Shown here: piece by piece, positions 42,214 to 51,389 of the stretch
Layout: the number at the start of each line of letters is the position of its first letter
Position numbering within the stretch: position 1 is the first letter of the stretch
Notes under the pieces: generated by a model
Seen by the model: only the letters and a program-made list of their open reading frames with translations
Told to the model about the DNA's origin: nothing
Databases searched by the model: none
Position numbers and translations under genes: made by a program
Assembly (NCBI RefSeq): GCF_046105845.1
Contig: NZ_CP151004.1
Origin: Escherichia coli
Lineage (GTDB): Bacteria > Pseudomonadota > Gammaproteobacteria > Enterobacterales > Enterobacteriaceae
Length of the DNA: 64,000 nucleotides
Reading direction: 5' to 3' (one strand)

Positions 42214-43440
42214 ATGGGAATTAACGAAATCATCATGTACATCATGATGTTCTTTATGCTGATAGCTGCCGTAGACAGGATCCTGTCGCAGTTCGGTGGT
42301 TCTGCTCGTTTCCTCGGTAAGTTCGGTAAAAGTATCGAAGGATCAGGCGGGCAGTTTGAAGAAGGCTTTATGGCAATGGGCGCTCTGGGCCTGGCGATGG
42401 TCGGTATGACCGCGCTGGCACCGGTACTGGCTCACGTACTCGGGCCGGTAATTATCCCGGTTTACGAAATGCTCGGTGCAAACCCGTCAATGTTCGCCGG
42501 AACACTGCTGGCGTGCGATATGGGCGGGTTCTTCCTCGCCAAAGAGCTGGCGGGCGGCGACGTAGCAGCGTGGCTATACTCTGGGTTAATTCTCGGGTCG
42601 ATGATGGGGCCAACGATTGTGTTTTCCATTCCGGTGGCGCTCGGCATTATCGAACCTTCTGACCGTCGTTATCTGGCGCTCGGCGTGCTGGCGGGCATTG
42701 TGACCATTCCGATTGGCTGTATTGCTGGTGGTCTGGTTGCTATGTACTCCGGTGTGCAGATCAACGGTCAGCCGGTGGAATTCACCTTTGCGCTGATCCT
42801 GATGAACATGATCCCGGTACTTATCGTTGCGGTGCTGGTGGCGCTGGGGCTGAAATTCATCCCGGAAAAAATGATCAACGGCTTCCAGATCTTCGCCAAA
42901 TTCCTCGTTGCATTGATCACCCTCGGTCTTGCTGCCGCGGTAGTGAAATTCCTCCTTGGCTGGGAACTGATCCCCGGTCTGGATCCTATCTTTATGGCCC
43001 CTGGCGATAAACCCGGTGAAGTGATGCGCGCCATTGAAGTTATCGGTTCTATCTCCTGCGTTCTGTTAGGGGCGTACCCGATGGTACTGCTGCTGACTCG
43101 CTGGTTTGAAAAACCGCTGATGAGCGTCGGTAAAGTGCTGAATATGAACAACATCGCGGCAGCTGGCATGGTGGCAACGCTTGCCAACAATATCCCGATG
43201 TTCGGCATGATGAAGCAGATGGATACCCGCGGCAAAGTGATCAACTGTGCCTTCGCCGTTTCCGCTGCTTTCGCCCTGGGTGACCACTTAGGCTTCGCCG
43301 CTGCCAACATGAACGCCATGATTTTCCCGATGATTGTCGGCAAGTTGATCGGCGGCGTAACGGCGATTGGCGTGGCGATGATGCTGGTGCCAAAAGAAGA
43401 CGCGACCGCGGCCAAAACCGAAGTGGAGGCACAATCGTGA
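42214..43440 (+). CDS. eutH: Ethanolamine permease EutH
   Basis: 408 aa polytopic membrane protein from ATG 42214 (MGINEIIMYIMMFFML...). Confidence 0.94.
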   Translation: MGINEIIMYIMMFFMLIAAVDRILSQFGGSARFLGKFGKSIEGSGGQFEEGFMAMGALGLAMVGMTALAPVLAHVLGPVIIPVYEMLGANPSMFAGTLLACDMGGFFLAKELAGGDVAAWLYSGLILGSMMGPTIVFSIPVALGIIEPSDRRYLALGVLAGIVTIPIGCIAGGLVAMYSGVQINGQPVEFTFALILMNMIPVLIVAVLVALGLKFIPEKMINGFQIFAKFLVALITLGLAAAVVKFLLGWELIPGLDPIFMAPGDKPGEVMRAIEVIGSISCVLLGAYPMVLLLTRWFEKPLMSVGKVLNMNNIAAAGMVATLANNIPMFGMMKQMDTRGKVINCAFAVSAAFALGDHLGFAAANMNAMIFPMIVGKLIGGVTAIGVAMMLVPKEDATAAKTEVEAQS

Positions 43441-44840
43441 ACACTCGCCAGCTACTGAGCGTCGGTATCGATATCGGCACCACCACCACCCAGGTGATCT
43501 TCTCCCACCTGGAGCTGGTTAACCGTGCGGCGGTGTCGCAGGTGCCGCGCTACGAATTCATCAAACGCGAAATTAGCTGGCAAAGCCCGGTGTTCTTTAC
43601 CCCTGTCGATAAACAGGGTGGTTTAAAAGAAGCGGAACTGAAATCGCTGATTTTAGAGCAATATCAGGCTGCGGGCATTGCGCCGGAAAGCGTTGATTCT
43701 GGTGCCATCATCATCACCGGTGAAAGCGCGAAAACCCGCAACGCTCGCCCGGCGGTGATGACGCTCTCCCAGTCGCTGGGCGATTTTGTCGTCGCCAGCG
43801 CCGGGCCGCATCTCGAATCCGTGATCGCCGGTCACGGTGCCGGGGCGCAAACCCTTTCTGAACAACGGCTGTGTCGGGTCCTGAATATCGATATCGGCGG
43901 TGGCACCGCGAACTACGCCCTGTTCGATGCCGGAAAAATCAGCGGCACCGCCTGCCTCAACGTCGGCGGTCGCCTGCTGGAAACCGACAGCCAGGGGCGC
44001 GTGGTTTACGCTCATAAACCGGGGCAGATGATTGTGGATGAGTGCTTCGGTGCAGGCACTGACGCCCGTTCGCTGACCGGCGCGCAGCTGGTGCAGGTTA
44101 CCCGGCGGATGGCAGAACTGATTGTCGAAGTGATTGACGGAACGCTCTCGCCGCTCGCGCAGGCATTGATGCAAACCGGTTTGTTGCCCGCAGGTGTTAC
44201 GCCCGAAATCATTACGCTTTCTGGCGGCGTGGGCGAATGTTATCGCCACCAGCCCGCCGACCCGTTCTGTTTTGCCGATATCGGCCCGCTGCTGGCAACG
44301 GCGCTGCATGACCATCCGAGCCTGCGTGAGATGAACGTGCAGTTTCCGGCGCAAACCGTACGCGCCACGGTGATTGGCGCGGGTGCACATACCCTTTCGC
44401 TCTCTGGCAGCACAATCTGGCTGGAGGGCGTACAACTGCCGCTGCGCAATTTGCCGGTGGCGATCCCGATTGATGAAACGGATCTGGTGAGTGCCTGGCA
44501 ACAAGCGCTAATTCAACTGGATCTTTGCCCCAAAACTGACGCGTACGTGCTGGCGCTTCCCGCCTCGCTGCCTGTGCGTTACGCCGCGGTACTGACGGTC
44601 ATCAACGCGCTGGTCGATTTCGTCGCGCGTTTTCCGAATCCGCATCCCCTGCTGGTGGTGGCCGGGCAGGACTTTGGTAAAGCTCTGGGCATGTTGTTGC
44701 GCCCACAGCTACAACAACTCCCGTTGGCAGTCATTGACGAAGTGATTGTCCGCGCGGGGGACTATATCGACATTGGTACGCCTCTTTTTGGCCGATCGGT
44801 TGTGCCGGTGACGGTGAAATCACTCGCATTTCCTTCCTGA
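43437..44840 (+). CDS. eutA: Ethanolamine ammonia-lyase reactivase EutA
   Basis: 467 aa from GTG 43437 (NTRQLLSVGIDIGTTTTQVIFS...), overlapping eutH stop. Confidence 0.94.
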   Translation: MNTRQLLSVGIDIGTTTTQVIFSHLELVNRAAVSQVPRYEFIKREISWQSPVFFTPVDKQGGLKEAELKSLILEQYQAAGIAPESVDSGAIIITGESAKTRNARPAVMTLSQSLGDFVVASAGPHLESVIAGHGAGAQTLSEQRLCRVLNIDIGGGTANYALFDAGKISGTACLNVGGRLLETDSQGRVVYAHKPGQMIVDECFGAGTDARSLTGAQLVQVTRRMAELIVEVIDGTLSPLAQALMQTGLLPAGVTPEIITLSGGVGECYRHQPADPFCFADIGPLLATALHDHPSLREMNVQFPAQTVRATVIGAGAHTLSLSGSTIWLEGVQLPLRNLPVAIPIDETDLVSAWQQALIQLDLCPKTDAYVLALPASLPVRYAAVLTVINALVDFVARFPNPHPLLVVAGQDFGKALGMLLRPQLQQLPLAVIDEVIVRAGDYIDIGTPLFGRSVVPVTVKSLAFPS

Positions 44841-44851
44841 GGGAACGACTT

Positions 44852-46213
44852 ATGAAACTAAAGACCACATTGTTCGGCAATGTATATCAGTTTAAGGATG
44901 TAAAAGAGGTGCTGGCTAAAGCCAACGAACTGCGTTCGGGGGATGTGCTGGCAGGCGTTGCAGCGGCAAGTTCACAGGAGCGCGTGGCGGCAAAGCAGGT
45001 GTTGTCGGAAATGACCGTAGCGGACATCCGCAATAATCCGGTGATTGCCTATGAAGATGACTGCGTGACGCGGCTGATTCAGGACGATGTTAACGAAACG
45101 GCCTACAACCAGATTAAAAACTGGAGCATCAGCGAACTGCGTGAGTATGTGCTAAGCGATGAAACCAGCGTGGACGACATTGCCTTTACCCGCAAAGGGC
45201 TGACCTCGGAAGTGGTCGCGGCGGTAGCGAAGATTTGCTCCAACGCGGACCTGATCTACGGCGCGAAGAAAATGCCGGTGATCAAAAAGGCCAATACCAC
45301 CATCGGTATTCCGGGCACCTTCAGCGCCCGCTTGCAGCCAAACGACACCCGTGACGACGTGCAAAGTATCGCCGCGCAAATCTACGAAGGGCTTTCCTTC
45401 GGGGTGGGCGATGCGGTGATCGGCGTTAACCCGGTGACTGACGACGTGGAAAACTTAAGCCGCGTGTTGGACACCATTTACGGCGTGATCGACAAATTCA
45501 ACATCCCAACTCAGGGCTGCGTGCTGGCGCACGTCACCACCCAGATTGAAGCGATCCGTCGTGGCGCACCAGGCGGGCTGATTTTCCAGAGTATCTGCGG
45601 CAGCGAAAAAGGGCTGAAAGAATTTGGCGTGGAGCTGGCGATGCTCGACGAAGCGCGCGCAGTGGGCGCAGAGTTCAATCGTATCGCCGGGGAAAACTGC
45701 CTCTACTTCGAAACCGGACAAGGTTCGGCGCTGTCTGCTGGCGCTAACTTCGGCGCAGACCAGGTGACGATGGAAGCGCGTAACTACGGGCTGGCGCGTC
45801 ATTACGATCCGTTTATCGTCAACACCGTGGTCGGCTTTATTGGGCCGGAGTATCTCTACAACGACCGCCAGATTATCCGTGCGGGCTTAGAAGATCACTT
45901 TATGGGTAAGCTGAGCGGCATCTCTATGGGCTGTGACTGCTGCTACACCAACCACGCTGACGCTGACCAGAACCTCAACGAAAACCTCATGATCCTGCTC
46001 GCCACCGCAGGCTGCAACTACATCATGGGGATGCCGCTGGGCGATGACATCATGCTCAACTATCAGACCACCGCATTCCACGACACTGCCACTGTGCGTC
46101 AGTTACTCAACCTGCGCCCGTCACCGGAGTTTGAACGCTGGCTGGAAAGCATGGGCATTATGGCAAACGGTCGCCTGACCAAACGGGCGGGCGATCCGTC
46201 ACTGTTCTTCTGA
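44852..46213 (+). CDS. eutB: Ethanolamine ammonia-lyase large subunit EutB
   Basis: 453 aa (MKLKTTLFGNVYQFKDVKEVLAKANELRSGD...); starts 11 bp after eutA stop with no intervening insertion. Confidence 0.96.
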   Translation: MKLKTTLFGNVYQFKDVKEVLAKANELRSGDVLAGVAAASSQERVAAKQVLSEMTVADIRNNPVIAYEDDCVTRLIQDDVNETAYNQIKNWSISELREYVLSDETSVDDIAFTRKGLTSEVVAAVAKICSNADLIYGAKKMPVIKKANTTIGIPGTFSARLQPNDTRDDVQSIAAQIYEGLSFGVGDAVIGVNPVTDDVENLSRVLDTIYGVIDKFNIPTQGCVLAHVTTQIEAIRRGAPGGLIFQSICGSEKGLKEFGVELAMLDEARAVGAEFNRIAGENCLYFETGQGSALSAGANFGADQVTMEARNYGLARHYDPFIVNTVVGFIGPEYLYNDRQIIRAGLEDHFMGKLSGISMGCDCCYTNHADADQNLNENLMILLATAGCNYIMGMPLGDDIMLNYQTTAFHDTATVRQLLNLRPSPEFERWLESMGIMANGRLTKRAGDPSLFF

Positions 46214-47799: not shown

Positions 47800-48300
47800 A
47801 TGATCAATGCACTGGGATTGCTGGAAGTGGACGGCATGGTCGCCGCGATAGATGCAGCTGATGCCATGCTCAAAGCAGCTAACGTTCGTCTGCTCAGTCA
47901 CGAAGTGCTTGACCCTGGTCGCCTAACGCTGGTGGTGGAAGGCGATCTGGCGGCGTGTCGTGCGGCGCTGGACGCAGGTTGTGCTGCCGCGATGCGTACC
48001 GGGCGTGTCATCAGCCGTAAGGAGATCGGTCGGCCAGACGATGACACCCAGTGGCTGGTTACTGGCTTTAACCGCCAGCCGAAGCAACCCGTAAAGGAAC
48101 CCGACGCGCCAGTTATCGTCGCGGAATCTGCTGACGAGTTGTTGGCGCTGTTAACATCAGTACGTCAGGGAATGACGGCAGGAGAAGTGGCAGCCCACTT
48201 TGGCTGGCCGCTCGAAAAAGCCAGAAATGCGCTCGAACAGCTCTTTTCTGCCGGGACGTTACGTAAACGCAGTAGTCGTTATCGTCTCAAGCCCCATTAA
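47800..48300 (+). CDS. eutK: Microcompartment shell protein EutK (BMC domain plus C-terminal helix-turn-helix-like tail)
   Basis: 166 aa from ATG 47800 with GGAGG 6 nt upstream; MINALGLLEVDGMVAAIDAADAMLKAANV. Confidence 0.93.
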   Translation: MINALGLLEVDGMVAAIDAADAMLKAANVRLLSHEVLDPGRLTLVVEGDLAACRAALDAGCAAAMRTGRVISRKEIGRPDDDTQWLVTGFNRQPKQPVKEPDAPVIVAESADELLALLTSVRQGMTAGEVAAHFGWPLEKARNALEQLFSAGTLRKRSSRYRLKPH

Positions 48301-48311
48301 CCTGTCGGAGG

Positions 48312-48337
48312 TGCCGGGTGTCCTACAACACCCGGCA
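48312..48337 (+). promoter_or_regulatory. Perfect 10 bp stem-loop in the eutR translation initiation region
   Basis: tgccgggtgt-cctaca-acacccggca; GGAGG immediately upstream (48307..48311) and eutR ATG 8 nt downstream (48346). Confidence 0.55.
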
Positions 48338-48345
48338 TTAACATC

Positions 48346-49398
48346 ATGAAAAAGACCCGTACAGCCAATTTGCACCATCTTTATCATGAACCCTTACCCG
48401 AAAACCTGAAGCTCACGCCGAAGGTCGAAGTGGATAATGTTCATCAACGACAGACAACGGATGTCTATGAACATGCTTTGACGATTACCGCCTGGCAGCA
48501 GATTTACGATCAGCTGCATCCGGGCAAGTTTCATGGTGAATTTACGGAAATTCTACTCGATGATATTCAGGTTTTTCGTGAATACACCGGTCTGGCGCTG
48601 CGTCAGTCGTGCCTGGTCTGGCCGAACTCGTTCTGGTTTGGCATTCCGGCGACGCGCGGTGAGCAGGGATTTATCGGTTCGCAATGTTTGGGAAGCGCAG
48701 AAATTGCGACGCGCCCTGGCGGCACCGAGTTTGAATTAAGTACGCCGGACGATTACACGATCCTGGGCGTAGTGCTTTCTGAAGATGTCATCACCCGTCA
48801 GGCTAACTTTTTGCATAATCCGGATCGGGTATTACATATGCTGCGTAGCCAGTCGGCGCTGGAAGTGAAAGAACAGCATAAAGCCGCGCTGTGGGGCTTT
48901 GTCCAACAGGCGCTGGCGACATTTTGCGAGAACCCGGAAAATCTTCATCAGCCTGCTGTGCGTAAAGTGCTGGGGGATAATTTGCTAATGGCGATGGGGG
49001 CGATGCTGGAAGAAGCGCAGCCAATGGTGACGGCGGAAAGCATCAGTCATCAGAGTTACCGTAGATTACTTTCCCGCGCCCGTGAATATGTGCTGGAAAA
49101 TATGTCTGAGCCGGTGACGGTGCTGGACTTGTGTAATCAACTGCATGTCAGCCGCCGCACGCTACAAAACGCGTTTCACGCTATTTTAGGCATTGGCCCA
49201 AATGCGTGGCTGAAACGCATTCGCCTGAACGCCGTACGCCGCGAACTGATAAGCCCTTGGTCGCAAAGCACAACGGTAAAAGACGCAGCCATGCAGTGGG
49301 GATTCTGGCATCTGGGGCAATTCGCCACGGATTATCAGCAACTGTTTGCCGAGAAGCCGTCACTGACGCTGCATCAGCGGATGCGGGAATGGGGGTGA
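48346..49398 (+). CDS. eutR: AraC-family transcriptional activator of the eut operon, EutR
   Basis: 350 aa; C-terminal AraC-type helix-turn-helix region. Confidence 0.94.
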
Positions 49399-49403
49399 GG
49401 GAG

Positions 49404-50306
<903 letters not shown>

Positions 50307-51176
50307 TTACCGCTTTCTCGAGTGTGCTTTCTGGTTGTCAAACCAGTGAAAATAACTGATCACGCCTTCGGCAATCGCTGTGGCGATTTTCTGGCGAAAT
50401 GCCGCCGTGCCTAACAGCCGCTCTTCTTCCGGATTGGTGATAAACGAGGTTTCCACCAGCACCGAAGGAACCGACGGCGATTTCAACACCACAAACGCGG
50501 CTTGTTCGGTGTTGCGGCTGTGCAGTTTATGCACCGGCTTAATCTTTTTCAGAATATGCGAGCCAAGCGTCAGGCTGTTTTTAATAGTATCGGTTTGCAC
50601 CAGATCAAACAGCACTTGCTGCAATAGGTGATCCTTGTCAGTCGCCTTTTTACCAGCAACTTCATCGGCGCGGTTTTCGCGTTCAGACAGGTATTTCGCC
50701 ATTGCGCTACTTGCACCGCGGTTAGAGAGGGCAAATACCGAAGCACCGGCAGCTTTCGGGTTGGTAAAGCCGTCGGCATGAATTGACATAAACAGATCTG
50801 CGCCATGTTTATGGGCGATTTCAACGCGATCGTAAAGTGGGATAAACGTATCGCCAGAACGCGTTAAACGCGCATCAATGCCATGATTACGCAAAATGGA
50901 ACGGACGTTTTTAGCAATCGCCAGCACCACATGTTTTTCTTTCGAACCGTTGCGTCCGATCGCTCCGGTATCAATCCCTCCGTGGCCTGGATCGAGAACA
51001 ACGACACGTTTGCCGCCAGATTTTTTTGCTTTCGGCTTGCTGTGTCCGTTGCTGGTTTTTAAAGGTTCTTCTTTGGCGATGGCTTGCGACATTCCTGACA
51101 ACGTCAGCGCTGCAAGTCCTGCTTTCAGCACCTGGCGGCGCGAAGTGAGTGTTTTTAGTGGTTTAAAAGTGCTCAT
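50307..51176 (-). CDS. amiA: N-acetylmuramoyl-L-alanine amidase AmiA (Tat-exported)
   Basis: 289 aa; twin-arginine signal SRRQVLKAGLAALTL; amidase_3 sequence; stop 3 bp before hemF start. Confidence 0.95.
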   Translation of the reverse strand: MSTFKPLKTLTSRRQVLKAGLAALTLSGMSQAIAKEEPLKTSNGHSKPKAKKSGGKRVVVLDPGHGGIDTGAIGRNGSKEKHVVLAIAKNVRSILRNHGIDARLTRSGDTFIPLYDRVEIAHKHGADLFMSIHADGFTNPKAAGASVFALSNRGASSAMAKYLSERENRADEVAGKKATDKDHLLQQVLFDLVQTDTIKNSLTLGSHILKKIKPVHKLHSRNTEQAAFVVLKSPSVPSVLVETSFITNPEEERLLGTAAFRQKIATAIAEGVISYFHWFDNQKAHSRKR

Positions 51177-51389
51177 ACGGCCTGAGTTGTAATAATAAAG
51201 TTCCAGATGTTATATCGTATCGCGTAATCCGTTACGACCGTTTGCTGTTGAGAATTGTTTTACTTTTCATTTCAATAGTTGACAACTCCCCATTATGCCA
51301 CTTTTTCAACCGATTTTCGTCAGATATTGGCTAATTCGACCGTTCACGCCATAATCAGCCTTTTAACCCGCAAAAAGGTAACGAATACC

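Follow-up and report, generated by a model that had tools for sequence, protein, structure and literature searches.

The genes eutR and hemF of Escherichia coli form a tight convergent junction. Our preferred reading, to which we give a probability of roughly 70%, is that it has no dedicated terminator and that the mutual read-through is ended by Rho inside the partner gene. Polymerases leaving eutR and hemF would each transcribe the 3' end of the partner, and ribosome stops would expose untranslated, C-rich, G-poor RNA, right after the eutR stop on the one side and some 360 nt beyond that of hemF on the other. Rho would then load on this untranslated RNA and end transcription a few hundred nt inside the partner gene. 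With little transcription leaving eutR and the antisense RNA cut short by Rho, neither gene is likely to affect the expression of the other by much. The layout itself is an ordinary tight convergent junction that was already known, since it is annotated in K-12, is common genome-wide and is accounted for by established mechanisms.

The eutR-hemF junction in E. coli

The DNA analysed, here called the window, is a 64,000-nt stretch of an E. coli genome (contig NZ_CP151004.1). In it eutR, the final gene of the eut operon, occupies 48346..49398 on the plus strand, with a 350-aa product and a TGA stop at 49396-49398 in the list of open reading frames. The product matches NCBIfam NF007522 (EutR) over residues 1-350 at 790 bits (cut-off 319), and the assignment agrees with the RefSeq annotation of homologous loci. 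On the minus strand hemF, which encodes oxygen-dependent coproporphyrinogen III oxidase, spans 49404..50303 (NF003727, 473.5 bits, cut-off 297); its TAA stop lies at 49404-49406 and reads TTA on the plus strand. The annotated ATG of hemF corresponds to position 50303, the ORF tool extends the frame to a GTG at 50306, and the K-12 annotation gives a gene of 900 nt. Immediately upstream of hemF on the same strand is amiA (50307..51176, minus strand; NF007652 AmiA, 580.2 bits, cut-off 400), with 3 bp from the amiA stop to the hemF start; in K-12, amiA is at 2552352..2553221 and hemF runs from 2553225. All three scores far exceed the equivalog cut-offs, and on these family assignments the names eutR, hemF and amiA can be regarded as secure.

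Only the five bases GGGAG (49399-49403) separate the two stop codons. That the genes converge with 5 bp between their stops, as the original prediction had it, is borne out by the sequence, the open reading frames, the NCBIfam families and the RefSeq annotation: these are two real genes on opposite strands, with facing stops and a gap below the size of a terminator. The gap is identical in K-12 MG1655 (RefSeq hemF 2553225..2554124, eutR 2554130..2555182), and the RefSeq annotation of the closest strain, NRZ14408, has a 5-bp gap too. Among 5,426 complete E. coli genomes, 5,425 matched a 2.1-kb stretch, for the most part with 95-99% identity, and 5,424 matched a junction-centred query of 301 nt. 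When 39 full-length rows were taken evenly down the ranking of matches to the 301-nt query, every one (39/39) covered exactly 301 bases in one piece, so the length of the gap looks fixed within E. coli.

The 301 nt at the junction (window 49250-49550) show only 90-95% identity to 4,414 E. coli genomes, and 93.7% to K-12; relative to the 2.1-kb surroundings, diversity is locally raised at the 3' ends of eutR and hemF. Farther upstream, the open reading frame in the place of eutA (43437..44840) lies next to the one in the place of eutB (44852..46213), and the eut operon therefore looks uninterrupted in the window. The K-12 eut operon carries the CPZ-55 prophage insertion, which would affect P1-driven transcription reaching eutR.

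The original prediction also implied that such a layout is special, but it is common in E. coli. The full K-12 annotation has about 704 convergent pairs. In a sample of four arbitrary 50-kb stretches of it (200 kb, 27 convergent pairs), seven pairs (26%, Wilson 95% interval about 13-45%) are no more than 5 bp apart, namely dkgB/yafC (-4), yafS/rnhA (-4), yafJ/dpaA (-30), pnuC/zitB (-4), modC/ybhA (0), lysR/ygeA (-14) and rhaR/rhaT (-4). Six of the seven overlap, and galR/lysA falls just outside the limit at 6 bp. Overlap has also been published as the norm, with complementary 3' ends in 276 of 370 convergent E. coli operons and a mean overlap of 286 nt by transcriptomics.

Transcript overlap and read-through

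Since each mRNA must hold its own stop codon, 11 nt is the minimum overlap of the eutR and hemF transcripts, and the actual overlap is much longer. The 5-bp spacer is too short for a terminator, so polymerases from either gene must enter the other. This much of the original prediction, that each transcript necessarily reads into the partner as antisense RNA, stands: five bases hold no terminator, the hemF side is represented by a Rho termination region antisense to eutR in K-12, and the eutR side by a lacZ reporter. The further proposal that read-through from the eut operon and from amiA-hemF interferes with the other transcript is speculation, possible but unsupported, for reasons taken up below.

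In E. coli 536 the reporter, which immediately follows the eutR stop, is turned on by ethanolamine, and transcription must therefore cross the eutR stop in this strain. Even under induction the output is low (37 Miller units). In LB the eut operon is silent. In Salmonella eutR is additionally served by P2, a weak constitutive promoter. Neither hemF nor eutR is mentioned in the SMRT-Cappable-seq supplements. One practical consequence of the overlap is that inserts in the 'eutR-hemF intergenic region', such as the E. coli 536 reporters, sit within both transcription units.

Probable Rho-dependent termination

Rho loads on untranslated RNA that is rich in C and poor in G, and Rho-dependent suppression of antisense read-through was reportedly described by Peters et al. 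in 2012. RNA of this composition is present on both strands of the junction, each time with at least about 70-80 nt of untranslated C-rich, G-poor sequence upstream of the proposed termination zone. On the plus strand a candidate rut site for eutR read-through lies at 49406..49483 (28 C and 10 G in 78 nt, C/G 2.8); it begins 7 nt past the eutR stop, is antisense to the last 80 nt of hemF and ranks within the top ~0.2% when 78-nt windows from both strands of the 64 kb are compared, and its C/G in K-12 is 2.6. Of the 47 long open reading frames in the window, hemF has the highest antisense C/G over its last 100 nt; antisense C-richness is partly generic to coding sequence there (median C/G 1.12 antisense, 0.89 sense). 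On the minus strand the candidate rut for hemF read-through is at 48963..49040 (32 C, 11 G, C/G 2.91), 363-441 nt past the hemF stop and antisense to eutR, in the top ~0.1% of windows; its K-12 equivalent has a C/G of 2.5 at +364.

In Supplementary file 2 of Adams et al. 2021 (PMC7815308), K-12 2554640 (+) is given as a Rho termination region of the class 'antisense eutR' (Rho score 4.5, p 8.9e-8), with 78 reads upstream and 18 downstream without bicyclomycin and 102 and 106 in its presence. By way of the collinear eutR gene, the peak corresponds to window position 48888 on the minus strand, at a resolution of hundreds of nt; from the hemF stop it is about 515 nt away, and from the C-rich tract 75-150 nt in the downstream direction. 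The region was called from 800-nt coverage windows, so that hemF read-through cannot be separated there from a possible antisense promoter inside eutR, and it fits hemF read-through that is stopped by Rho inside eutR. Antisense regions are the largest class of Rho termination regions in that study, which among the Term-seq 3' ends that it lists has none at K-12 2553600-2554799 on either strand.

In the published K-12 data bicyclomycin raises read-through on the hemF strand. Termination of hemF-strand read-through by Rho is shown, at low resolution, in K-12. For eutR read-through, the C-rich tract after the stop suggests that it is probably ended by Rho about 100-300 nt into hemF.

The same supplement holds a far stronger Rho region antisense to eutB, at K-12 NC_000913.3 2558053 (+), with a Rho score of 23 and p 3e-86 (Adams et al. 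2021). It corresponds to about 45.4-45.5 kb of the window on the minus strand.

Intrinsic terminators and the hairpin at the stop codons

Consensus scanning and folding gave no convincing intrinsic terminator within about 600 nt of the junction on either side, and at the junction itself there is no G+C-rich hairpin with a U tract past the stop. Chance alone would give 9.0 +/- 3.4 terminator-like consensus sites in the 7 kb scanned, and 12 were counted. One such match inside hemF (49940..49964, plus strand, about 540 nt past the eutR stop) was rejected, its predicted fold being without the proposed stem (z -1.2), and another inside eutR (48863..48892, minus strand, about 510 nt past the hemF stop) was unconvincing (fold z +0.39). 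Rfam returned no family in 48300-51300 at E <= 1, save a spurious 5.8S match.

That these two embedded sites are intrinsic terminators which end both transcripts inside the partner coding sequence is very improbable. Both were picked up by the consensus scan, the minus-strand site coincides with the Rho region peak at 48888, and TransTermHP predicts overlapping terminators at 146 of 165 convergent excludons of E. coli (PMC12288877). The number of matches, however, is at the chance level, the proposed stems are absent from the predicted folds, termination on the hemF strand is sensitive to bicyclomycin, and a dsRNA duplex lies beyond the plus-strand site.

RNA folding did find an imperfect hairpin across both stop codons, at 49385..49417, with no U tract after it on either strand. 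On the plus strand its energy is -16.6 kcal/mol (z -1.9), equalled by 9 of 200 shuffles, and on the minus strand -13.4 kcal/mol (z -0.75). In a 101-nt context on the plus strand the minimum-energy fold does not contain it, and a search for inverted repeats with a 6-base seed did not find it. The hairpin arises from the similar 3' codons of the two genes (eutR ..REWG*, hemF ..RDWV*), and it is weak and probably incidental.

A stem-loop at this place brings to mind the collision-driven bidirectional termination of Ju et al. 2019 and Wang et al. 2022, in which the hairpin would position converging polymerases and allow release without Rho or a U tract. Members of the class sit between convergent genes, lack intrinsic features and need a stem-loop, and the hairpin at 49385-49417 does cover both stop codons. 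We nevertheless consider this mechanism decidedly unlikely at eutR-hemF. The hairpin is no better than shuffles on the minus strand, marginal on the plus strand and lost in the 101-nt context, and it derives from conserved C-terminal residues, the Trp codon keeping the same position where the genes are 50-900 bp apart. The class is defined as Rho-independent, yet hemF read-through responds to bicyclomycin; collisions require both genes to be highly expressed, and eutR output is low; and the 3' ends listed by Adams et al. include no defined Term-seq end at the junction (K-12 2553600-2554799). Termination by Rho inside the partner gene remains the preferred reading.

RNA antisense to hemF

A 21-bp sense/antisense duplex generated by RNase III has been recovered from hemF of K-12 (PMC7373196, supplementary file 7, consistent with the paper's description of Table S3; 354 and 767 reads). 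Its equivalent was located with 1 mismatch at 49983..50003 in the window, 585-605 nt past the eutR stop. The duplex shows that RNA antisense to hemF exists in K-12, and its position means that this RNA either outreaches the predicted termination zone of 100-300 nt or starts elsewhere. It is not specific evidence, because dsRNA reads come from 87% of E. coli genes (PMC7373196).

The duplex bears on the idea of an excludon, in which read-through from eut would lower hemF and read-through from hemF would lower eutR, so that expression becomes mutually exclusive through head-on collisions of polymerases and RNase III cleavage of the sense/antisense duplex. The overlap of the two transcripts is obligatory and an RNase III-type duplex maps inside hemF, as such coupling would have it. 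In addition, a 2025 catalogue holds 165 convergent excludons of E. coli MG1655, and excludon pairs have shorter intergenic distances (PMC12288877). The hemF-eutR pair, however, is missing from the MG1655 core list of these 165, which comprises excludons present in at least 50% of 58 MG1655 transcriptomes. Transcription out of eutR is weak even on induction, as the reporter shows, the duplex in hemF is unspecific, and in Citrobacter, Klebsiella and Salmonella the genes lie 54-910 bp apart with REP palindromes between them, so that the tight coupling is not conserved. Ethanolamine use is not known to us to be functionally connected with aerobic haem synthesis. Excludon-type coupling is therefore unlikely: interference is unsupported because the pair is absent from the core excludome, flux through eutR is low, Rho limits the antisense RNA and tight coupling is not conserved outside Escherichia.

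The junction in other genera

A EutR scan of species-representative genomes yielded 63 loci. The convergent adjacency of eutR and hemF was found in Escherichia, Citrobacter, the Klebsiella oxytoca group, Salmonella arizonae, Pseudocitrobacter, a Pluralibacter MAG and Intestinirhabdus, while in Hafnia, Morganella, Dickeya, Pectobacterium and other distant genera there was no hemF within 2.5 kb of eutR. Among the loci scanned the 5-bp gap is confined to Escherichia, with spacers of constant length that read GGGAG, ATAAA or GGTAA; the Pluralibacter MAG has a gap of 8 bp and Intestinirhabdus one of 19 bp. At 22 loci of other genera REP-type palindromes make up a gap of 54-150 bp, and their folds are strong on either strand (-0.30 to -0.59 kcal/mol per nt for the plus strand), and two Citrobacter loci (L025:3554-3978 and L027:3554-4463) carry tandem REP/BIME arrays of 425 and 910 bp at the junction. 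No palindrome of the GCCGGATG...ATCCGGC type stands between the stops in the window, where the spacer is GGGAG.

Between convergent genes, REPs are regarded as bidirectional terminators or blocks to decay, and are present in about 30% of E. coli convergent intergenic regions. The eutR-hemF junction looks like a hot spot where REPs expand and insertions occur, and the REP arrays or the toxin-antitoxin module that relatives carry there would make a handy natural comparison for the role of REPs between convergent genes.

Several individual loci deserve mention. In Pseudocitrobacter (L029:3548-4520) the junction holds a REP and a 226-aa open reading frame with a signal-peptide-like N-terminus. In Escherichia whittamii (L006:3560-5343) an insertion of 1,784 bp lies exactly between the stop codons of eutR and hemF; its open reading frames encode a 223-aa product with no Pfam match, a 171-aa GNAT-like product (PF13508, 21 bits, below the cut-off) and a 97-aa TacA-like antitoxin (PF08681, 88.6 bits), and from these matches the insertion resembles a toxin-antitoxin module of the TacAT type. 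The EutR of one MAG labelled Citrobacter sp. is 100% identical to that of the window, and E. coli-like eutR fragments (95-98%) occur on contigs of 411-457 bp in assemblies labelled Bacillus hominis and Prolixibacteraceae; these oddly labelled loci (L003, L059, L060 and L061, the Citrobacter sp. MAG among them) are probably due to mis-binning or contamination.

Codon usage at the 3' end of hemF

In the last 30 codons of hemF (window 49407-49496, minus strand) Escherichia uses C-poor and partly rare synonyms (AGG for Arg, TTA for Leu, AGT for Ser). Third-position C occurs 3-4 times there in Escherichia and 8-9 times in Citrobacter, Klebsiella and Salmonella. This makes the eutR read-through RNA unusually G-poor, and over the first 90 nt the antisense C/G is 2.1-2.3 in Escherichia and 1.2-1.7 elsewhere.

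A Rho loading site embedded in hemF and shaped by synonymous selection might have replaced a lost extragenic terminator in Escherichia, but the chance of this is small. An effect of lineage explains the codon trait equally well as compensation by a stronger Rho site. A C-rich hemF antisense is also found in E. whittamii, with its 1.8-kb insertion, and in one Pseudocitrobacter with a REP spacer, and it is absent from Pluralibacter (8-bp gap) and Intestinirhabdus (19-bp gap). Because of these four cases the notion that C-rich antisense tracks a short gap across genera was rejected; the distribution follows lineage and not gap length. If the embedded site were real, a conditional excludon tying ethanolamine induction to the level of HemF could be a side effect.

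Comparison with known systems

The collision-type terminators (Ju et al. 2019; Wang et al. 2022 preprint) resemble the eutR-hemF junction in their place between convergent genes and in having a stem-loop that lacks a U tract. They differ in that the hairpin at eutR-hemF is statistically weak, hemF read-through is Rho-dependent and no sharp 3' ends have been reported. With the REP/BIME junctions the relation is one of homologous position, since Citrobacter, Klebsiella (oxytoca group), Salmonella arizonae and Pseudocitrobacter carry REP-type palindromes at eutR-hemF, whereas the window and all other Escherichia loci with the 5-bp gap are without REPs. Convergent excludons (Sesto et al. 2013; ExcludonFinder, PMC12288877) share with eutR-hemF neighbours on opposite strands and transcripts that overlap at their 3' ends, but eutR-hemF stands outside the MG1655 core excludome.

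There is also a likeness to the antisense read-through suppressed by Rho (Adams et al. 2021), through the untranslated, C-rich, G-poor antisense RNA and the bicyclomycin-sensitive region on the hemF strand; the exact termination points and rut sites at eutR-hemF are predictions. The tight convergent pairs of K-12 (the dnaQ/rnhA type, the ilvA/ilvY type, dkgB/yafC, yafS/rnhA, pnuC/zitB and rhaR/rhaT) likewise have opposite strands and facing stops, leave no place for a terminator between the genes and give transcripts with complementary 3' ends. From these pairs nothing essential sets eutR-hemF apart, its stops being 5 bp apart in place of a 4-bp overlap.
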